A stretch of DNA of 20,000 bases from an uncultured virus (IMG/VR IMGVR_UViG_2540341247_000004) (taxonomy: Duplodnaviria > Heunggongvirae > Uroviricota > Caudoviricetes). The stretch lies in IMG/VR virus record IMGVR_UViG_2540341247_000004, one strand, 5' to 3'. The notes under the pieces were generated by a model. It searched no databases, was not told where the DNA came from, and saw nothing but the letters and a program-made list of their open reading frames with translations. The position numbers and the translations under genes were made by a program. Positions 42 through 18,568 of the stretch are shown here, in pieces; the first letter of the stretch is position 1; each line of letters opens with the position of its first letter.

Positions 42-862
42 GCCCTGCGTCCAGATCGCCACCAGCTGCACCAGCTGCCCGGCCCTGCGTCCAGATCGCC
101 ACCAGCTGCACCAGCTGCCCGGCCCTGCGTCCAGATCGCCACCAGCTGCACCAGCTGCCCGGCCCTGCGTCCAGTCGCCACCAGCTGCACCAGCTGCCCG
201 GCCCTGCGTCCAGTCGCCACCAGCTGCACCAGCTGCCCGGCCCTGCGTCCAGTCGCCACCAGCTGCACCAGCTGCCCGGCCCTGCGTCCAGTCGCCACCA
301 GCTGCACCAGCTGCCCGGCCCTGCGTCCAGATCGCCACCAGTCGCGCCGCTGCCCGGCCCTGCGTCCAGTCGCCACCAGCTGCACCAGCTGCCCGGCCCT
401 GCGTCCAGTCGCCACCAGTCGCGCCGCTGCCCGGCCCTGCGTCCAGATCGCCACCAGCTGCACCAGCTGCCCGGCCCTGCGTCCAGTCGCCACCAGTCGC
501 GCCGCTGCCCGGCCCTGCGTCCAGATCGCCACCAGCTGCACCAGCTGCCCGGCCCTGCGTCCAGTCGCCACCAGCTGCACCAGCTGCCCGGCCCTGCGTC
601 CAGTCGCCACCAGTCGCGCCGCTGCCCGGCCCTGCGTCCAGTCGCCACCAGCTGCACCAGCTGCCCGGCCCTGCGTCCAGTCGCCACCAGCTGCACCAGC
701 TGCCCGGCCCTGCGTCCAGTCGCCACCAGCTGCACCAGCTGCCCGGCCCTGCGTCCAGTCGCCACCAGCTGCACCAGCTGCCCGGCCCTGCGTCCAGTCG
801 CCACCAGCTGCACCAGCTGCCCGGCCCTGCGTCCAGTCGCCACCAGCTGCACCAGCTGCCCG
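42..862. repeat. Tandem array of 21 units of 38-40 bp, consensus GCCCTGCGTCCAG(A)TCGCCACCAGCTGCACCAGCTGCCCG
   Basis: Counted directly. Variants are a 39-bp standard unit, a 40-bp unit with an extra A that creates GATC, a 38-bp unit with CCAGTCGCGCCGCTG, and one hybrid. No unique spacers. Confidence 0.97.
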
Positions 863-989
863 GACATTGTGCCCTGACATTGCGTTGCATGATGCAAGCA
901 AGGCTATCATGCGCTTTGACACATGATCTGACACATGGAAACACGGAAAAATCGTTGCTTTTCAATGGGTTGCCGGTCGCGGTGGCTTT

Positions 990-1061
990 GGGTCCCTCTT
1001 GCGCCTGGCCGCAGGGGGCGGGGACGCGGAACCCCGAATCTCGCGCAATTTGAAACTTTCC
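990..1061 (+). other. Candidate lambda-like cos packaging site (cosQ-like GGGTCCC 990-996; cosN-like dyad 1019-1036)
   Basis: GGGTCCC resembles lambda cosQ GGGTCCT. About 25 bp later is the dyad CGGGG-ACGCGGAA-CCCCG, then TTTGAAACTTTCC, similar to the AT-rich stretch right of lambda cosN. An IHF-like TTTCAATGGGTTG lies at 960-972. Confidence 0.6.
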
Positions 1062-1095
1062 TCAATAAAACAGCAATGATTATGAGGTTGGACTC

Positions 1096-1144
1096 ATGTA
1101 AATAGGCTTAACATAGTATTTTAGTATGTAAATAGGCTTAACAT
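1096..1144. repeat. Two perfect 19-bp direct repeats ATGTAAATAGGCTTAACAT (1096-1114, 1126-1144)
   Basis: Exact copies with starts 30 bp apart; each is an imperfect palindrome; AT-rich non-coding context. Confidence 0.9.
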
Positions 1145-1435
1145 CGACCTGCCGAGGCGTTTCCTGCAAAAACCCCCTAAATTTGGTCGGATCTCTTGAA
1201 TAGTCACAGATTGACTATTTTGGAACAAAAAAAGGGGACCATCCGAAGATGGCCCCGAGTTGACTGCGCGCCGTATCGCGCCATTGCCTACAGCAAGAAA
1301 CCCCCTTCTACCGCGAATCTTTTTCACGGTCAACGTGCTTCTCACACCTTGGTCAAGGCTGGACTGGGACAGCAGATCGCACCTGGCGCAAAGCCTAGCT
1401 GTCGCATCATGCGATATTTCGCATTTCCTCGGATT

Positions 1436-1789
1436 TGTTACAGGAGTTACAGGATTTTCAAGGCTGTAACACAAGGCTGTAACAAGTTAAGTCCTTGTTT
1501 TTTTTGATTTTTCTTTAATTTGTTACAGGTGTTACAGGAATCTCTTAGAGAGTATAGAGAAATAGGGGAAAAGTGAAAATCGGAAGGGGGAATAGGAAAT
1601 AGGGCTAAAGCCATCATACAACTGGTCATAGCATGGTGATGAACAGGTGCATCGGGGAAGCCCGTATCGTGTAGAGACATAAGAGATTCCTGTAACACCT
1701 GTAACATCTCAGAATTTTCTTTTAGTTACATACACTTACGCTGTTACAGCCTTTGTTACAGCCTTGTTACAGGATTCAAAGCTGTAACA
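1436..1789. repeat. Cluster of 13 (T)GTTACA/TGTAACA motifs with a perfect 27-bp inverted repeat; candidate replication origin
   Basis: TGTTACAGGTGTTACAGGAATCTCTTA (1521-1547) is the exact reverse complement of 1680-1706. Outer arms GGCTGTAACA x2 and TGTTACAGCC x2. AT-rich tract at about 1486-1520. Lies downstream of the primase-helicase gene. Confidence 0.75.
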
Positions 1790-1909
1790 CTCCCTACGCG
1801 ATCATCGGACACAGCGCATCATGCGCCCTGTCGCATCATCGCCTACGTTGCATCATACAACCATTTCAATCTTCGTTTGTGTTACATCATTGCGTGTGTG
1901 TTATTTCAC

Positions 1910-1938
1910 TTGAAATGTGAAACATGCGATCATAGTAT
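1910..1938 (+). promoter_or_regulatory. Putative sigma70-type promoter for the 1970 ORF
   Basis: TTGAAA-N17-TAGTAT, overlapped by the palindrome TTTCAC-N7-GTGAAA (1904-1922). Confidence 0.5.
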
Positions 1939-1969
1939 ATGTCTCATCTTCAACAGAAAGGATTCTGAC

Positions 1970-2425
1970 ATGAAACCTCACGCGAAACCCCGCAGCCGAG
2001 CCATATTGGCCCTGATGACACTGGCAGGGATGGATGAAAAGAAGCCGAATCCGGCTATCGAAACCCCTTCCGCCGACCGTGCGAGGCCGCTTTTCATGGC
2101 ACTGGAAGGCGTCGTTATGGCCGCGATCCCCGGACCGAGAAGCGAGGCCCTGGTTACTCAGGCGGAGCTCGCACGGCGCTTGGACGTGCCCAAACTCGTC
2201 GTCGGTGCCATTGTCAAAGTGCTGGAACAGGATGGCCGGGTGCAGCGCTACCCGAGTTTCCGCGAGGATGACGGCCTTATCTGCGGAACCGGCTATCAAC
2301 GGGTATCGGACGGCCCGCTGATCGGCTCCGTCCCCGGCGCAGATGCGGGCGCGGCAGAGGTATGGGAAGACAAATGGGGGAAAGAGACCGGGGGAGCCTG
2401 GTGGTCGAAGGGGTCGAAGACATGA
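1970..2425 (+). CDS. Phage winged helix-turn-helix protein (151 aa)
   Basis: ATG at 1970 preceded by AAGGA (1958-1962). Segment VTQAELARRLDVPKLVVGAIVKVLEQDGRVQR fits a wHTH pattern. Confidence 0.7.
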   Translation: MKPHAKPRSRAILALMTLAGMDEKKPNPAIETPSADRARPLFMALEGVVMAAIPGPRSEALVTQAELARRLDVPKLVVGAIVKVLEQDGRVQRYPSFREDDGLICGTGYQRVSDGPLIGSVPGADAGAAEVWEDKWGKETGGAWWSKGSKT

Positions 2426-2460
2426 AAGGGTTTCAAGTGATCTGACCTGAACCCCAGACC

Positions 2461-2491
2461 AAAGAAAAGGGCCGCTAATGCGGCCCTTCTT
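2461..2491. terminator. Probably bidirectional terminator between convergent genes
   Basis: Stem AAGGGCCGC-taat-GCGGCCCTT with an A-rich left flank (U-tail on the minus strand) and a pyrimidine right flank. Confidence 0.75.
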
Positions 2492-5016
2492 CATTTCGGA
2501 ACGATGCGGTCAAACATCCTCTGGATGCCGTGGACCTTGTGCCGCCTGGGCTTCGGGTCGGGCATCCAGCCACTGAGCATCCGCAGTGCCCTGCCAACGA
2601 GCTGTGCGTTGCGCTGGTCAAGCAGACTGGCGTCCCTGCCCAGGCACTCGACCCAGATTTCTCTGATGCAGGTTTCATTTCTGTATTCAGGGCCGACGCC
2701 ATCGATATCGGAGAAGTCCGCGCCCACGGGCAGATCAAGCCAATGCTCGATTTGCCCAGCCAACATTTCTTCGGCGCTTTCCACGCGGCGGCTTTCTTGG
2801 AACAACCGGGCTTCTTCGATCGCCTGCGGATCGGTCATGTAAAGCGGCAGGTAGTCGCCGTGTTCCTTGTGCAGCGCGCGGAACATAACCACCGCTTCGG
2901 CCCAAATCTGCTGAATGTTCCTGGACAGCGTGTCAATGTCGATTGGCTCAGTGCGGTTGACCCTGATAGGCCAGAAGCGCCTGCCGCCGGTGTTGTCGCG
3001 CAGATACGTGTCTTCGTTGGTGGAACCGATGAAGACCTGTTGCCGTGGGAAGACCCTGGGACGCTTGTCGTAGGCCAGGCGTCGCTTGTCGTGCGTCCGT
3101 GATATGAACCCTTTGAGGATGTTGCCGTCGGCCTTCGAGTGGCCTTGCAGTTCCGGCATTTCCAGAATCCATGATCCTTCCATGCTTTCGATCATCCGGT
3201 TCGGGTCGTGGAAGTCGGCAGCCAATTCCCCCGTCCACTCGCCGCCCAGCACGGCGATGAAGGTGGACTTCCTGATCCCCTGGGTGCCTTCGAGGATCGG
3301 GACGAAATCAAACTTGCAGCCCGGAATGAAAATGCGCGCGACCGCACCGATCAGGAACAACCTCGCCGCCTCATGGTGATAGGGCGTGTCCGGGCACCCC
3401 AGATAGTCGATGAACAGCCGGGTCATGCGAGGCACCCGGTCCCATTCGATCTGATTCAGGAAGTCCTGAACGGGATGAAATGTGTTCTCAAGCGACGCCT
3501 CGATTACAGCGGCTTTTAGGTCGCGGTCAGTGACCTTCATGGCGTATCCGCCCTGCCGGATAGGCGCTTCAATGAACCGTCTGACCCCTACATCATGGTC
3601 ATCGGTCCAAAGATCGCCGTTAACCTCATCCTTCACGTCCCAGATTGACTTGCTGAGTTGGACGACGGGCTTCGGGCTTTCCTTTTTCAACTTCGCCACA
3701 CCGGGCTTCTGGATCAGAACGATCTGCTCACTGAACAGGTTCTTGCCGAGAACGCCGCATGTTCGAACGTCGTTGCGCAGGACCAGGCAAGTGTTGGGCA
3801 TGGTGTTTGCATACCCGTCACCGTCCTTGTTCACCTGCATGCAACTGCGCCACTCATCCATAGGTTCGAGCTGTCTACGGGTGACGCGGATGTCCTTCTG
3901 CGCAGGTTGATCGACGCCAAGAAGGTCCAGTAGCGGGTCCGATCCGACCGGCACCAGAGCTACCCCTTCCGGTGGCAGGTCAAGGAGGTCTTCAAACTCA
4001 CCTTGCGATGAAAAATCGTCCTCATCGAACGACAAATCACCTTCCAGACGATGCCGGTTTGCAGCCTGAATAAGCGATGCCATCGTGACTGGGTTCTTGG
4101 ACCCCTTGAACGAATTCCACACCACCAGCTGGTTCTTGGCGTCGAATTTCTCTGACCGCCTCGACCACTCGCACCATCTTTCATACCCGTCTTCACCACC
4201 TTCGAACTGGTGACTGAGGGCCTGGCCGACGCGCAACCACTCGTCGCGGTCATCAACCCAGTCTTCCGGCAGATCACGCAGGACGCGGGAAACATCGTCT
4301 TCCTCAAGGTCCAGCTTTCGCTTTCGGACCTCCGACATCAGCCACTCGCCGTCGTCTTCGTCGTCCTCAAGCGATCCAGTATCGGCCTTGATACCCCACG
4401 ATTCTACCAGTGAGGCGGGCACCGTAGGCCCTATTCCGAGATCCACCATCGTCAGATCAAGAGGGGTCTCCCATCGGTAGGGTTGACCTGTATCCGGGTG
4501 GATCGAAGGAGGTATGACGGCCTGTTTTCCTGTGCCGAATAGTTCGATCTCCCAGTCGTTCTTCTTGACCTCACGACCCTTGGTTTCGTCCCATACCATC
4601 TTGAAGGTTTTCGACTTCGCCAGCTTGCGAGACCGGAACGGCATGTCTGTGATGAAATAGAAGTGCCTCGACTCGCCGCCCGATCCGCTGATGACCGTCG
4701 GGAACGCCTCGAAACCCGGCCAGATGGACCGGAGATAGTCGCGACAATCCCCTGCCATCGCGGGGTCGCGGATATCGAGGTCTATGAGGTAGATGAAGCC
4801 GAGGTTCGTCTTCGAAAACTCGCCCAGGCGGATGCCCACATTGGCCCCGCTTCTGTAGTTCCCTCGCAAATCTTCAAGTGTGTTGCGTCCGAGTTCTGAC
4901 CAGTTTTCGGCAATCGGAGCTTTGCTTTGCGGCCTCAACCAATGGAGGGCCGCCCCGCCTTTGACGAGCGGTTCAATGGACTTGAACGCCTCATCACGGG
5001 ACAGTGAATTCGCCAT
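2491..5016 (-). CDS. Primase-polymerase (Prim-Pol) + PriCT-2 + VapE-like P-loop helicase, 841 aa
   Basis: N-terminal ANVGIRLG, IDLD, SGSGG..RHFYF and VIPPSIHPDTG..YRW; PriCT-2-like DRDEWLRVGQAL..WCEWSRRSEKF; VapE-like GCKFD..ILEGTQGIRKST and GSTNEDTYLRDNTGGRRFWPI. Confidence 0.9.
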   Translation of the reverse strand: MANSLSRDEAFKSIEPLVKGGAALHWLRPQSKAPIAENWSELGRNTLEDLRGNYRSGANVGIRLGEFSKTNLGFIYLIDLDIRDPAMAGDCRDYLRSIWPGFEAFPTVISGSGGESRHFYFITDMPFRSRKLAKSKTFKMVWDETKGREVKKNDWEIELFGTGKQAVIPPSIHPDTGQPYRWETPLDLTMVDLGIGPTVPASLVESWGIKADTGSLEDDEDDGEWLMSEVRKRKLDLEEDDVSRVLRDLPEDWVDDRDEWLRVGQALSHQFEGGEDGYERWCEWSRRSEKFDAKNQLVVWNSFKGSKNPVTMASLIQAANRHRLEGDLSFDEDDFSSQGEFEDLLDLPPEGVALVPVGSDPLLDLLGVDQPAQKDIRVTRRQLEPMDEWRSCMQVNKDGDGYANTMPNTCLVLRNDVRTCGVLGKNLFSEQIVLIQKPGVAKLKKESPKPVVQLSKSIWDVKDEVNGDLWTDDHDVGVRRFIEAPIRQGGYAMKVTDRDLKAAVIEASLENTFHPVQDFLNQIEWDRVPRMTRLFIDYLGCPDTPYHHEAARLFLIGAVARIFIPGCKFDFVPILEGTQGIRKSTFIAVLGGEWTGELAADFHDPNRMIESMEGSWILEMPELQGHSKADGNILKGFISRTHDKRRLAYDKRPRVFPRQQVFIGSTNEDTYLRDNTGGRRFWPIRVNRTEPIDIDTLSRNIQQIWAEAVVMFRALHKEHGDYLPLYMTDPQAIEEARLFQESRRVESAEEMLAGQIEHWLDLPVGADFSDIDGVGPEYRNETCIREIWVECLGRDASLLDQRNAQLVGRALRMLSGWMPDPKPRRHKVHGIQRMFDRIVPK

Positions 5017-13609: not shown

Positions 13610-14305
13610 ATGCCGATGCTTGACAAGAAAATATTGCACCCCGATTTTGCCGAGCGTTTTCAGCTCGCCTGCGAGGGTAACCCCCATGTCCCGCCCCAGC
13701 ACTACGGGCGGCTGGGTTGGATCGTCAAAGAAATGAAATCCCGCTTTGACATCAAGACGACACCAGAAACCGTTCGTCGTTGGTCGTCGGGTGAGGCACG
13801 TCCGCGCACAGACAAGCTGCGCGCCCTTGCGCAGCTTTTACAGGTTGACCAGGCATGGCTGGCCCTTGGGCAACAGCCTACCGACACACCCAAGGAACGT
13901 CGCCTGCGCGACGCCGAGCGCGATGGTGCAGTCAACCTTCTGGCAGGCGCAATCCGCATGTGCGGGGGAAACCCAGCCTTCCCCACGGACGATGACACCC
14001 AGGCAAAAGAAAACCTGACCGACCTGTTCGCGATCATCAAAGGTGCCCAATACGCAATACACGTTACGACTCCTGTGATCGAAGGCGACAAGATGACGTT
14101 CGCGATCCCGGTCAAGGCCCGGAACTCGCTGGCACTTGCCGTCGTCATGGAACCCAGATTGCAGTTCAGTTTCTACGAACTTCCCTGGGATCAAGTCGAG
14201 GAACTGGGGCAGATGAAATCCGGCAACTACCATCTTGAGGTTCCCGTGTCGCAGCTCGCGACTGTGGGTGCCCGGAAAATCGAGACATTTGCAGAGCGGA
14301 TTTGA
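13610..14305 (+). CDS. XRE-family HTH transcriptional regulator, candidate prophage repressor
   Basis: TTPETVRRWSSGEARPRTDKLRALAQLLQVDQAWLALG is a typical XRE HTH; AT-rich regulatory DNA on both sides; no obvious S24 peptidase motifs. Confidence 0.8.
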   Translation: MPMLDKKILHPDFAERFQLACEGNPHVPPQHYGRLGWIVKEMKSRFDIKTTPETVRRWSSGEARPRTDKLRALAQLLQVDQAWLALGQQPTDTPKERRLRDAERDGAVNLLAGAIRMCGGNPAFPTDDDTQAKENLTDLFAIIKGAQYAIHVTTPVIEGDKMTFAIPVKARNSLALAVVMEPRLQFSFYELPWDQVEELGQMKSGNYHLEVPVSQLATVGARKIETFAERI

Positions 14306-14320
14306 CAATCACCTTTAATG

Positions 14321-14349
14321 TTGTGACTTTCACTAATTAAGTGTATTCT
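14321..14349 (+). promoter_or_regulatory. Putative promoter of the methyltransferase gene overlapped by an operator-like motif
   Basis: TTGTGA-N17-TATTCT; ACTTTCAC-N7-GTGT at 14326-14344; an additional TTGACA at 14302-14307. Confidence 0.45.
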
Positions 14350-14376
14350 GAATCCTTGTCGAAGGGGGTTTAGGAC

Positions 14377-17300
14377 ATGCGTTTCGGAAGTGTTTGCAGC
14401 GGGATTGAAGCTGCGTCTGTAGCCTTCGCCCCCCTTGGGTGGGAAGCCGCTTGGCTGGCCGAAACAGACCTGGCGGCGTCTGCTGTCCTTTCGCACCGAT
14501 ATGGGGCGACCGCACCCAGATTCCCGGTCTCGGAAAAGGATGCAAAGCGCGCCGCGAAGATCGAGTGGGGGGATCGCGTCACCAACTGGGGTGACATGAC
14601 CCGCATCCCAGACCTGGTCCGATCAGGTGAAGCCGAGGCCCCGGACGTTCTCTGCGGCGGGACGCCGTGTTTTCCGGCAGGAGCTTTGGTTTCCACGCCA
14701 AAAGGTTTCAAGGAAATCCAGACAATCCGACCAGGGGACATAGTTCTGACTCATGAGGGTAGGTATCGCAAAGTCCTGCGGACAGGTTCAAAGTTCGCCA
14801 CCAATACGGTCTGCATAACCGGTCAAGGCCACCATGGGTTAAATTCGACCTCGAACCATCCGTTCCTGACTCGGCAGAGAACCTTTAGTTCCACACGCAA
14901 GAACGGGAAAGCGGTGGCTCTGACTGGCGTAACCCATCTTCAATGGACGGATGCGGCTGATTTGAAGGGACACCACTGGGCAGCACTCGAACGCTACCCG
15001 GAGCATCCCATAATGTCCCCGGAAGCTGTGGGGCGTGAGACACCTGTTCCAGGTATGTGCGAGGCCCTAGCATGGCTGGCGGGCGCGTATGTAGGGGACG
15101 GCTGGACCAGAATCAACGACCGACGGGGTTATGTCCTCTACGGTGTGAATGATTCAAAGGCAGAATTAATACGAAAAACACTTTCTGATTACGGGCTAAC
15201 CCACTCCGAGTCGCGCGAACGAACAACACTTCGAATCCAGATTTCTTCGCGCCCACTTGCCCGTTGGATGGTCACGAATTTTGGAAGCGGATCGGAAGGC
15301 AAGGAACTTCCGACATGGCTGTTCGGCGCGGATGAAGGAATTCGTCGGGCGTTCTTTGAAGGCTACGCTGCAATGGACGGGACCAAAATTCGCCTAGGTC
15401 ACAGAATCGTAACAGTAAGCCGAAAGCTTGCCCTTGGGACCAAAATTCTAGCAAACACTCTTGGTATGGCGGCAAGCGTTCGGCTTGTTGAGCCAACTCG
15501 AAATAAGTGTTTCATCGAAGGCCGGGAAGTTCGTGAAAAAGCATACTATACCGTGTCTACTTCGACATCCAGTAGAACGTCTTTCTCAGATGGAAAGTAT
15601 CGATTCGGCTGTGTAAGATCGGTAACCCCATCCAAACCATGTATGGTCTACAACCTAGAGGTAGAAGAAGATCACACCTACTTAGTGGATGGAATTGTAG
15701 TCCATAATTGCCAGTCGTATTCGATTGCCGGCCGCCGCAAGGGCCTGGGTGATGAACGCGGTCAACTGACCCTCAAATTCGTGGAAATCGCAGATGAAAT
15801 CGACAACGCCCGCGCAAGACTCGGCCTCCAACCTTGCATTGTCTTCTGGGAAAACGTGCCCGGAGTCCTCACCGATGCCGGAAATGCCTTCGGAAACTAC
15901 CTTGCGGATCTCGCCGGCGACGACCAGGCTCTTGAGCCGGGGCCGCGACCTGAACATGGACGGTCCTCTACCCATTGGAGCTGGAAAAAAGACGCCGGTG
16001 AGCATCGCCCGAAGTGGTCAAACGCTGGTATTATTGTTGGACCCAAGCGGACAGTCGCATGGCGAGTCATGGATGCCCAATATTTCGGTCTGGCCCAACG
16101 ACGCGCGCGTCTGTTTGTTGTCGCAAGTGCTGGAATGGGGATACATCCCGACGAAATACTTCTTGAGTTCGACCGCATGCGCCGGGATACTCAGCCGCGC
16201 CGACCGACGGGGGAAGACCTTGCCCGATCTGCTGTTGAACGCGCTTTTGAAAGCGGCGACTGGCATAGAGGACTCCACCCCAGTCTCGCGCAATCCCACA
16301 GCACAGGTGGTATCGGACAGTCAAATCAAGAACTGTTCTCACAGCGCGGCGCGGGACTCGTGGCCGTCCCCGGTGCTGATATGGGCCACGGCGGCATAGA
16401 ACCGGATGTCTTTCGTCTGGTTGCGTTTGGCGATTACAGGCACGATTCAAAGAGTTCGTCCCTGAACGCGCGTGACCACAAGTATGTCACTGACATTGTT
16501 TTACATCACGGCCAGCCTGTGACCTCCCCTGGTGATGTCTTGGCTTTCGACACCACGCAGATCACGTCCCCTGCCAACTTCTCCCGGCCCCAACCGGGAG
16601 ATCCCTGTCATCCTCTTGCTGCTGGGGCACACGCCCCCGCGATCTGCTTCACGTCGAAGGATCACGGACAGGACGCGACCGAAGAAATGGCCCCTACGAT
16701 GCGCGCAATGTCTCATGGCGCGTCACACGCCAACGGTGGCGGGCAGCTTGCCGTCGCGTTCACCGAGCGAGGGCGACCGGAAGGTCGAACCGTGGAAGTC
16801 AACGGAGACTTGGCCTACGCGCTTCTGGCCCCCACGGGCGGATCGCGGTCACAGGAAAAGATGGTCGCCACAAAAGGAGCGCCCAATGCCGATGCCCATG
16901 AAACCGACACCGCTCAAATTCTGCGAGAACTGCGAGAATGTGTTGGTGAGGAAGCGTTCGCCCGGTGGGGCACCGGAATCGTTGCTTCACTTTTCTCGCC
17001 GGAAGTTTTGCAATCGTGGCTGCATGGCAAAAAGTTTCTCACAACGCCCAAAGACGGACGACCCTTCTTGGATGACTGCGCACTACCACGCGCGCAAGAC
17101 TTGCCCGGAGGCGTCCTGCAAAATCTGTGGCTCGACGGGCCGCACGGATGTTCATCACAAGGACGAAGACTGGCAGAACAACTCACCAAGCAATTTGGTG
17201 AGACTTTGCAGATCATGCCACAACAAGCAGCATCGGTAGGCTTCGACTTGCACTATATGCCGGAAAAGGGCGAAGGGCCACGGGTTTTGCCCGAAGCACT

Positions 17301-18087
17301 TGCAGAGGTTCAAGAAATGGGGCGACCCGAAGCTGATAATGCGAAACGGATCACTACTTCGGTCAGACGACTGATCCCCGTTGAAACCGAAAGGCTGCAA
17401 GGTTTCCCTGACGGTTACACCCTTGTCCCAGTGGCCGGGAAACTGGCCGCAGACGGCCCCCGCTACAAGCAGCTGGGCAATAGCTGGCCGGTGGCCGTGG
17501 TCAACTGGATCGGCCAGCGGATCGACCGCGCTGTGAACAAACTCCCAAGAAACCTTCACCCTTTCACCCGAGGATTACGCATGGCTGACCGCACCGTAGA
17601 AAAAGGCGAGGCTCACAATCTCAACTCATTCATAACCGAACCACGGCCCGCTGCCTTCTGGGATCACTTCTTTCTTACCATGGCCGATCACACCGCAACT
17701 GCTTCGAAAGACCCCAGCACGAAGGTTGGCTGCGTCCTGGTCGATGACAGGCGGCGCGTGATCGGCGTTGGCTACAACGGCTTCCCTCGGGGCGTCCTGG
17801 ACCTCCCAGCACGGTATGCCGACCGCCCGACCAAATACCTCATGGTCCAGCATGCGGAAGCAAACGCGGTCCTTCAAGCAACCATCTCGACCCATGGGGC
17901 GACCGCTTTCGTGACCCATCCGCCTTGCGCAAACTGTGCCGGAATTCTGATTCAGGCTGGCATCAAGCGAGTAGTCACGCGGCACCCAGCGCCGGATCTC
18001 GCGGATCGGTTCAAGGACTCCTTCGACGCCGCTACTCAGATGTTTCTGGAAGCCGGAGTCTACCAGCGTTTCATTCGGCATCCCTGA
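14377..18087 (+). CDS. DNA (cytosine-5) methyltransferase with intein and long variable region, in frame with a C-terminal dCMP deaminase (1236 aa as assembled)
   Basis: Motif I FGSVCSGIEA, IV GGTP/CQ (split by the intein), VI ENVPG, VIII QRRARLFVV, IX RRLIPVETERLQGFP and X RYKQLGNSW; deaminase motifs follow. Confidence 0.92.
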   Translation: MRFGSVCSGIEAASVAFAPLGWEAAWLAETDLAASAVLSHRYGATAPRFPVSEKDAKRAAKIEWGDRVTNWGDMTRIPDLVRSGEAEAPDVLCGGTPCFPAGALVSTPKGFKEIQTIRPGDIVLTHEGRYRKVLRTGSKFATNTVCITGQGHHGLNSTSNHPFLTRQRTFSSTRKNGKAVALTGVTHLQWTDAADLKGHHWAALERYPEHPIMSPEAVGRETPVPGMCEALAWLAGAYVGDGWTRINDRRGYVLYGVNDSKAELIRKTLSDYGLTHSESRERTTLRIQISSRPLARWMVTNFGSGSEGKELPTWLFGADEGIRRAFFEGYAAMDGTKIRLGHRIVTVSRKLALGTKILANTLGMAASVRLVEPTRNKCFIEGREVREKAYYTVSTSTSSRTSFSDGKYRFGCVRSVTPSKPCMVYNLEVEEDHTYLVDGIVVHNCQSYSIAGRRKGLGDERGQLTLKFVEIADEIDNARARLGLQPCIVFWENVPGVLTDAGNAFGNYLADLAGDDQALEPGPRPEHGRSSTHWSWKKDAGEHRPKWSNAGIIVGPKRTVAWRVMDAQYFGLAQRRARLFVVASAGMGIHPDEILLEFDRMRRDTQPRRPTGEDLARSAVERAFESGDWHRGLHPSLAQSHSTGGIGQSNQELFSQRGAGLVAVPGADMGHGGIEPDVFRLVAFGDYRHDSKSSSLNARDHKYVTDIVLHHGQPVTSPGDVLAFDTTQITSPANFSRPQPGDPCHPLAAGAHAPAICFTSKDHGQDATEEMAPTMRAMSHGASHANGGGQLAVAFTERGRPEGRTVEVNGDLAYALLAPTGGSRSQEKMVATKGAPNADAHETDTAQILRELRECVGEEAFARWGTGIVASLFSPEVLQSWLHGKKFLTTPKDGRPFLDDCALPRAQDLPGGVLQNLWLDGPHGCSSQGRRLAEQLTKQFGETLQIMPQQAASVGFDLHYMPEKGEGPRVLPEALAEVQEMGRPEADNAKRITTSVRRLIPVETERLQGFPDGYTLVPVAGKLAADGPRYKQLGNSWPVAVVNWIGQRIDRAVNKLPRNLHPFTRGLRMADRTVEKGEAHNLNSFITEPRPAAFWDHFFLTMADHTATASKDPSTKVGCVLVDDRRRVIGVGYNGFPRGVLDLPARYADRPTKYLMVQHAEANAVLQATISTHGATAFVTHPPCANCAGILIQAGIKRVVTRHPAPDLADRFKDSFDAATQMFLEAGVYQRFIRHP
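14668..15708 (+). mobile_element. Intein with LAGLIDADG homing endonuclease (347 aa, residues 98-444)
   Basis: Begins CFPAGALV; block B TSNHPF; LAGAYVGDG and FEGYAAMDG; block F VYNLEVEEDHTY; ends VVHN followed by Cys. Removal restores GGTPCQSYSIAG. Confidence 0.95.
15794..16399 (+). CDS. Nested +1-frame ORF, M.EcoHK31I beta-polypeptide-like (201 aa)
   Basis: Stop-free across MTase motifs VI-VIII; GESWMPN...CLLSQVLE...KYFLS..AC.GIL.RA.RRGK.LP resembles the alternative-frame beta subunit type (recalled similarity, not searched). Confidence 0.7.
   Translation: MKSTTPAQDSASNLALSSGKTCPESSPMPEMPSETTLRISPATTRLLSRGRDLNMDGPLPIGAGKKTPVSIARSGQTLVLLLDPSGQSHGESWMPNISVWPNDARVCLLSQVLEWGYIPTKYFLSSTACAGILSRADRRGKTLPDLLLNALLKAATGIEDSTPVSRNPTAQVVSDSQIKNCSHSAARDSWPSPVLIWATAA
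16886..17374 (+). CDS. Nested +1-frame HNH endonuclease with zinc fingers; in-frame TAG at 17237-17239
   Basis: AAGGAG at 16874-16879 then ATG 16886; CENC..KFCNRGC; CKIC...DVHHKDEDWQNNSPSNLVRLCRSCHNKQH. After the TAG the frame continues CTIC..AKGHGFCPKHLQRFKKWGDP to TGA at 17372-17374. Confidence 0.85.
17581..18087 (+). CDS. dCMP deaminase domain with its own internal start (168 aa)
   Basis: GAGGA at 17570-17574 then ATG 17581; SKDPSTKVG, GYNGFPRG, HAEANA and PCANC zinc-deaminase motifs. Confidence 0.88.
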   Translation: MADRTVEKGEAHNLNSFITEPRPAAFWDHFFLTMADHTATASKDPSTKVGCVLVDDRRRVIGVGYNGFPRGVLDLPARYADRPTKYLMVQHAEANAVLQATISTHGATAFVTHPPCANCAGILIQAGIKRVVTRHPAPDLADRFKDSFDAATQMFLEAGVYQRFIRHP

Positions 18088-18495
18088 TCGAATTGAACCA
18101 CTCTGCTAGGGCGACCTCACCACCGATGGTCGCCCTGACAAACGCCCGGTCGCCGCACGGATTACCTGCGATCTGCTTGACCTGGGCCACCCTCAAGTCC
18201 CGATAGTCCCTGCGCCCGCCGTCCGGTCTCACGCCGAACGGTTCGGCCGCGAGACTGACCGCGCCCCTGCCCTCGGGCTTGAACATGCGGATCCGATACC
18301 CATTCTTCCTGTGACCCAACCGGGGCGAACCTGGCGTTCAAGCAATAGCCCGACGAACGGTTCACGGTAGCAGATGGCGCTGATGTCATCGACAAAGGCC
18401 GCGTGATTAGGCGGCAGATCGGCAACTGCAACCGTGCCCTGATCGGCAGAAGCGACCGATGCCACGGCGAGGAAATAGAACACAGCGGATTTCAT
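18071..18495 (-). pseudogene. Probable exported protein gene, apparently frameshifted near 18305-18320 (real change or sequencing error)
   Basis: GGAG RBS and signal-peptide-like MKSAVFYFLAVASVASA. ORFs 18229-18495 and 18071-18319 overlap in adjacent frames and would join into a protein of about 140 aa. Confidence 0.45.
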
Positions 18496-18568
18496 AACTC
18501 ACTCCAACCAATGGTAGTGTCGATATGATCGGGCATATGGGAATCAAGGCAAAGCATTGTCTCGTAAA

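Follow-up and report, generated by a model that had tools for sequence, protein, structure and literature searches.

In the 20,000-nucleotide stretch of an uncultured Caudoviricetes virus analysed here (IMG/VR record IMGVR_UViG_2540341247_000004; called the window below), the gene for a C5 DNA cytosine methyltransferase (MTase) of a prophage contains, just before conserved motif IX, an additional segment that is open in two reading frames, one of which encodes an HNH endonuclease. This segment is probably a selfish, homing-type HNH cassette that lies unspliced in the MTase coding sequence and is translated in both frames. In the mechanism that we propose, a cassette of 486 bp would have been inserted directly upstream of motif IX and would be removed by neither RNA nor protein splicing. 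The cassette would be "frame-transparent": the MTase would be translated straight through it, gaining about 160 residues in the form of a poorly structured loop, and ribosomes starting in the +1 frame at the Shine-Dalgarno motif and ATG of the cassette itself would make the nuclease, the open reading frame (ORF) of which would end where the conserved Leu-Thr/Met/Ile codons of motif IX supply a stop. The nuclease probably recognizes the DNA that codes for motif IX and presumably cuts or nicks insert-free MTase alleles near this site in co-infection; repair of the cut allele would then copy the cassette in. The design of a frame-transparent nested HNH is not new here. For mycobacteriophage DNA methylases it has been in print since 2025 as the "ShiLan domain", a frame-open insertion within which an out-of-frame HNH is hidden (Arsenault, Gosselin & Gogarten 2025, Genes, PMC11855218; Gosselin et al. 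2023, PMC9957025, for the element as these papers describe it).

The host gene extends from 14377 to 17599 on the + strand; with the letters of the window, its ORF continues to 18087. This ORF, 14377..18087 (+), is matched by Pfam PF00145 (DNA_methylase, E 2.8e-24) and by phrog_116 (E 3.6e-61), each match arriving as separate stretches, and motifs IV (PC), VI (ENV), VIII (QRR), IX and X (GNS) are all found in a single frame. The +1 peptide is recognized by the HNH family PF01844 with 23.2 bits, for a cut-off of 21.4, and by phrog_1271 (E 6.8e-10); 15 of its 17 PHROG matches are named HNH endonuclease. These assignments are in agreement with an earlier reading of the window (the original prediction), in which an HNH gene had been placed in the +1 frame of a methyltransferase, and they identify the latter as a C5 enzyme. 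The AlphaFold2 model of the HNH protein, computed with 26 relatives, has a mean pLDDT of 87.1. A Foldseek comparison of this model with the PDB returned nothing at E <= 0.001, the weak rows including McrA, Cap5, PacI and the GVE2 HNH, and a profile search of PDB sequences with the HNH gave marginal rows only, for example an IscB at E 0.01.

The boundaries of the insert were obtained from MTase homologues. The closest ones, P0065, P0066, P0067 and P0069 (79%, 75%, 70% and 67% identical, respectively), are full-length and all devoid of the insert, as is P0068. In the alignment, the insert-free P0065, P0066, P0067 and P0069 read ...SRSQEKMI-ATPS-SVRRLMP and the window reads ...SRSQEKMV-AT[KGAPNADAHE ... 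NAKRITT]SVRRLIP. The roughly 160 extra residues therefore place the insert at about 16873..17358 (+), that is about 486 bp or 162 codons, with a margin of about 2 codons on its edges. It lies between the variable target-recognition region of the MTase and motif IX (VRRLIPVETERLQGFPD, 17362..17412, +), which follows immediately 3'. In the MTase frame the insert begins with ...ATKGAP and finishes with ...RITT, and the peptide across it has no Pfam match of its own, which is compatible with the lack of MTase motifs reported for it earlier.

A Shine-Dalgarno-like AAGGAG (16874..16879, +), included in the MTase codons T-K-G-A, precedes the ATG of the HNH frame at 16886 by 6 nt, as had been noticed in the original prediction. 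The ORF opened by this ATG (16886..17239, +, +1 frame) encodes 117 aa comprising an N-terminal zinc finger (CxxC) and the HNH core. The original prediction had described a zinc finger-HNH-zinc finger protein running to a TGA in motif IX. The first finger and the HNH core were confirmed; the remainder must be corrected, the ORF being closed ahead of the second zinc ribbon by a premature in-frame TAG at 17237-17239. The severed tail (17240..17374, +) still has a readable C-terminal zinc ribbon (CTIC...CPKH...), and the TGA at 17372-17374, placed on the L-I codons of RRLIP in motif IX, is reached only by read-through of the TAG. In intact relatives the frame likewise continues through the second zinc ribbon, and the stops fall on the VRRLT codons. 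The window copy can therefore give at most a 117-aa nuclease without the C-terminal zinc ribbon, and it may have been disabled recently. The same TAG is present in Logan contigs from three runs of one sample, possibly the window's own source, with no alternative letters reported. In two runs of that sample the Logan contigs break at 16714, 16897-16900, 17022-17027 and 17213-17218, and the loose ends share short foreign sequences; these breaks may be library-derived. Other sizes of the element were also observed. Short inserts of about 118-123 codons, lacking the C-terminal zinc ribbon and open in both frames, occur in L084, P0074, P0113, P0153, P0169 and P0174, and longer nucleases of 199-223 aa with an additional ribbon are encoded by L092 and L095.

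The openness of both frames was compared with that of shuffled sequences. Over 16886-17371 the MTase frame of the window contains no stop, for a mean of 6.5 after shuffling synonymous for the HNH, and none of 1000 shuffles was free of stops; the third frame has 6 stops over the same interval. The MTase frame is thus open beyond chance, in line with the original prediction, which had it stop-free across 16874-17374. For 22 unique loci with the element at motif IX, the MTase frame has 0 stops for 3.6-12.6 expected, at most 0.8% of the shuffles being stop-free, and the HNH frame has 0 stops for 1.0-5.4 expected under MTase-synonymous shuffling. Pairwise nucleotide identities at the three codon positions are 0.654/0.662/0.456 within the insert, counted in the HNH frame, and 0.58/0.66/0.36 and 0.57/0.68/0.34 in the two flanks, counted in the MTase frame. 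Amino-acid identity of the HNH reaches 0.546 versus 0.232 after MTase-synonymous shuffling. Among diverged pairs, the MTase-frame peptide of the insert is 0.321 identical versus the 0.260 expected as a by-product, an excess to which shared descent may add. From the codon-position and amino-acid identity patterns, the nuclease is therefore the main target of selection in the insert, the MTase reading being chiefly kept open.

The same data bear on the idea that the +1 ORF is never translated and that its HNH-like frame is the fossil of a fused or captured gene, so that only the MTase reading matters today. The premature TAG of the window and the shortened forms of several relatives would fit such decay, and expression of the HNH is itself deduced from sequence. 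A fossil would hardly be expected, however, to show a codon-position pattern in the insert that is that of the HNH frame and not that of the MTase frame, nor a complete absence of HNH-frame stops at the 22 loci. In addition, among 26 aligned HNH relatives with 48-71% identity, the residues H90, H91, N99, N103, H112, H116, C78, C108 and C111, which include catalytic and zinc-binding positions, are invariant and C81 is nearly so; the HNH residues are thus preserved in homologues. Shine-Dalgarno motifs are also enriched before the ATG: GGAG, GAGG or AGGA is found at -18..-4 of the HNH ATG in 22 of 35 distinct family loci versus 15% of control windows. Taken together, these observations make the fossil explanation extremely improbable.

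An HNH-frame stop lies shortly upstream of the ATG in most loci. A conserved frameshift fusion of MTase and HNH was considered and rejected, since this stop falls only a few codons before the ATG. A scan of 16300-17700 gave no sigma-70 promoter site, and therefore no internal promoter is proposed.

The proposed cassette is unspliced, and signals of splicing were looked for. An Rfam scan of 14000-18500 gave no match at E <= 1, with the reservation, which counts against an unspliced cassette, that Rfam covers described RNA families only. Pfam matches of the Hint/intein type are confined to MTase residues 97-444, where a separate intein is located, with none over the insert, and the edges of the insert have neither a Cys, Ser or Thr start nor a His-Asn end. 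A group I intron-encoded endonuclease was rejected on the basis of the Rfam result and of the HNH ORF and Shine-Dalgarno motif, which fill 16874-17374; an intein at the insert was rejected because the Hint-family domains occur only in the separate one. The absence of intron and intein from the insert, and of space for a group I ribozyme core in a segment occupied almost entirely by the HNH ORF, had both been put forward in the original prediction and are upheld. It could still be argued that RNA or protein splicing of an unrecognised kind removes the insert, the open MTase frame serving an intein-like step or being incidental. Like introns and inteins, the insert is located at a conserved motif; in many loci the residue that follows it, ahead of VRRL, is S, A, Q or T, a true intein exists in the same gene, and the authors of the ShiLan work also leave this possibility open for their element in the corresponding part of their article (PMC11855218). 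Were the RNA spliced, however, there would be no need to avoid stops over about 160 codons in phages of 32-35% GC, where 11-12 stops are expected, and the Rfam result, the lack of room beside the HNH ORF, the restriction of the Hint/intein matches to residues 97-444 and the residues at the insert edges all speak against it. We regard this alternative as very unlikely.

The distribution of the insert is patchy. Among the 120 best MTase homologues, that of the window included, a hidden Markov model (HMM) of the MTase-frame insert detected it in 26; it was absent from 94, among them all 5 of the closest. On a FastTree phylogeny of the 120 MTases computed with the insert excised, presence and absence require at least 14 changes, shuffled labels giving 23.9 on average and never fewer than 20. 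A single clade of carriers was rejected by the approximately unbiased (AU) test (p 2e-72) on 56 rows, which comprised every carrier (26), the 5 closest of the non-carriers and 25 taken at random from the other 89. The insert is often much better conserved than the host gene, with for example 0.78 versus 0.33 identity; L082 and the window share 69-75% identity in the HNH and just 33-44% in the MTase. The original prediction had seen in the segment a splicing-free mobile insert that keeps the host frame open, of which alleles without the insert should exist; the insert-free homologues, the patchy distribution and the shuffling results support it.

A protein search with the HNH yielded 61 relatives, mostly of about 160 aa, in clusters of 1-4 member sequences and mostly from contigs of a few kb. 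Scans of viral and genome collections with the same protein gave 160 loci, of which 38, including the window, constitute a strong set (tblastn E <= 1e-10, at least 96 residues aligned). In 36 of these 38 a long ORF in the -1 frame covers the entire HNH ORF. The two exceptions, L096 and L109, are free-standing genes, that of L109 being within a replication module. In L096 a free-standing HNH gene (2692..3219), whose product is 48% identical, begins 37 nt after an insert-free C5 MTase (838..2655); this arrangement is possibly the precursor or an alternative state of the nested form. The HNH stop falls on, or within 30 codons before, the [VI]R[RK]L of motif IX in 23 loci, and in other loci the cassette precedes motif X of C5 MTases. 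Weaker matches to other HNH families mostly have no spanning ORF (they were not tallied), with exceptions such as L131/L132 and L060.

Intact copies are found in sequenced phages. By tblastn, a match of 43% identity (E 8e-23) was obtained in Staphylococcus phage CUB-EPI_14, which has 35% GC, under an annotated DNA-cytosine methyltransferase. In this phage, a 160-aa HNH ORF (3001..3483) preceded by AGGAGG and starting with ATG lies in the +1 frame of the CDS 1842..3647, and its stop is on the VRIRKLT codons; the annotation gives the methyltransferase only and misses the nested HNH. In Komagataeibacter phage phiKX1 (L172), an HNH ORF (2501..3019) is nested +1 in a 548-aa MTase-like ORF (1363..3009), before motif X, and neither the nuclease nor the full MTase ORF is annotated. 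The phiKX1 MTase-like ORF is also overlapped in another frame by a 374-aa ORF (1373..2497) with repeated GWPTP segments, just the 3' part of which is annotated. A tblastn search of the HNH against 50,697 phage records gave no Mycobacterium phage at E <= 0.01. The carriers are phages of Proteobacteria and Firmicutes, in which the element forms a distinct and widespread lineage.

The association of the family with C5 MTases (36 of 38 loci), at more than one site (before IX, before X), could also be read as a restriction-modification-like pair, in which methylation would protect the phage DNA, the HNH would attack unmethylated DNA of the host or of rival phages, and nesting would ensure the presence of the antidote. 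The free-standing relative that adjoins an insert-free MTase in L096, the free-standing relatives beside methylases also mentioned in PMC11855218 in the part dealing with them, and the invariance of MTase motifs IX and X in carriers would be compatible with such a pair. On the other hand, the closest MTase alleles manage without the cassette, its distribution is patchy, copies decay (the window TAG, the short forms without ribbon), the peptide in the MTase frame arises largely as a by-product of HNH coding, and the insertion tolerance of the variable region accounts equally well for the association. A pair of this kind is consequently judged quite unlikely.

Several points weigh against the selfish unspliced cassette that we favour. 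Production of the MTase and of the nuclease, as well as the cleavage site and the homing of this HNH family, are derived from sequence comparison, and in the window the nuclease ORF is shortened by the TAG. For the ShiLan-type element, cleavage and homing are likewise given as not demonstrated in the outlook section of PMC11855218. HNH and MTase identities correlate (r 0.51), and carriers of the insert group together in part on the MTase tree, where 14 changes compare with about 24 under random labels; inheritance is therefore vertical to a large extent. The tree is moreover unrooted, gains being indistinguishable from losses. Related HNHs are found at a second and a third C5 MTase site, before motif X, which would not normally be expected of one strict homing specificity. 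Finally, in the AlphaFold2 prediction for the L082 MTase the insert has a pLDDT of 30-57 and the catalytic domain is confident; the low-confidence insert would fit a tolerated loop, and equally a disabled enzyme. Motifs IX and X, 3' of the insert, are invariant in an alignment made up mostly of carriers (15 of 28 rows by the insert HMM, plus L082), which argues that the full-length enzyme still matters, and the methyltransferase may still be working.

As in the present case, the ShiLan element is a methylase insertion absent from close homologues, stop-free in the host frame and without intron or intein signature; it carries zinc finger-HNH-zinc finger in an alternate frame with a stop at the very end of the insert, has a disjunct distribution among divergent methylases, is predicted as helical with low confidence in the host frame, and lies in a gene that also has an intein. 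According to the section of PMC11855218 that describes it, the ShiLan HNH is in the third frame, starts with GTG and has 195 aa with no ribosome-binding site, leaderless initiation being proposed; here the frame is +1, the start is an ATG with a Shine-Dalgarno motif, and the forms have about 160 aa. The hosts also differ, mycobacteriophage methylases for ShiLan and C5 MTases in phages of Proteobacteria and Firmicutes here. The two lineages are set apart by the published description and by the lack of Mycobacterium phage matches in tblastn, not by direct sequence comparison. The similarity of the insert 5' end to the 3' flank reported for ShiLan was seen in 0 of 23 loci here (z > 3).

The second published case, as presented in PMC11855218, is a hidden ORF in Pacc40 gp60 (L173). 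It shares with the present element an out-of-frame nuclease-like ORF of about 160 aa in a frame-open methylase insertion, an intein, and free-standing relatives beside insert-free methylases. It differs by its host, a 1341-aa helicase plus N4/N6-type methylase, and by its frame, the hidden ORF 1472..1951 being in +2; judged by eye from the sequence, this ORF looks AP2/HNH_3-type, another type than the HNH described here.

Among classical systems, free-standing homing endonucleases such as those of the T4 seg and mob genes perform intronless homing from genes located between host genes. The nested HNH resembles them as a nuclease gene without intron or intein, spread (as proposed here) by cutting the empty allele, and has free-standing members in L096 and L109; it differs by residing not between genes but inside a coding sequence that is read through in another frame. 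With homing endonucleases borne by inteins or group I introns it shares its location at a conserved motif within a conserved phage gene, whereas here there are no splicing elements and the host protein apparently keeps the insert.

Side by side, the C5 case described here (+1, own ribosome-binding site), the N4/N6-type host of Pacc40 (+2) and ShiLan (third frame) might suggest that frame-transparent nesting is a recurrent, convergent strategy of unrelated HNH lineages in MTases of different superfamilies. In its boldest form the tie to the methylase would be functional, methylation shielding the carrier genome in a one-gene, restriction-modification-like selfish module. We consider this extension speculative and unlikely to hold.

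Apart from the HNH insert, the MTase gene contains an ordinary LAGLIDADG intein (14665..15708, +) that splits motif IV (GGTP / C...VVHN / CQSYS) and accounts for the Pfam matches Hint_2, PT-HINT, LAGLIDADG_3 and Intein_splicing at residues 97-444. Inserts related to this intein occur in 61 phage records, many under methyltransferase genes; P1-like dmt genes are represented, as are 24 records of Mycobacterium phages, Pacc40 gp60 among these. A second alternate-frame ORF of the same MTase (15794-16399, +1 frame) is conserved and bears ...YFLSSTACAGILSRADRRGKTLP...; it has no Pfam match and is 47% identical over 74 aa to its counterpart in L096. In 21 of 38 related loci the motif GIL.RA..RGK is found in the +1 frame within the MTase ORF, in open stretches of 67-255 aa; it also occurs in two more loci, L096 and L094, there outside the interval taken as the MTase ORF.

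At the 3' end, the database copy of the MTase, P0064, has 1073 aa and stops at the TAG 17597-17599 because of one A fewer in the AAA run 17539-17541, with a C-terminus ...EDYAWLTAP as in P0065-P0067. An in-frame fusion of the MTase with a dCMP deaminase in the window (17581-18087) was rejected, P0064 with one A fewer ending like its homologues; the apparent fusion is probably a one-base artefact or mutation. Given the P0064 reading, the deaminase would start at ATG 17581, with GAGGA 6 nt upstream and an overlap of 19 nt with the MTase end. The surrounding window is a phage replication module, with primase-helicase, exonucleases, ssDNA-annealing protein, DNA polymerase and helicase.

We found no published description of the lineage in C5 MTases and the +1 frame, with the limit that survey material accompanying PMC11855218 could include such elements. 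In practice, gene callers miss nested ORFs of this kind, as in CUB-EPI_14 and phiKX1. The canonical Shine-Dalgarno/ATG start and the intact copies in sequenced phages such as CUB-EPI_14 make the questions of hidden-frame translation, methylase function and nuclease target directly testable. A design so far described only in mycobacteriophages is here extended to a second, widespread lineage, in C5 methyltransferases.

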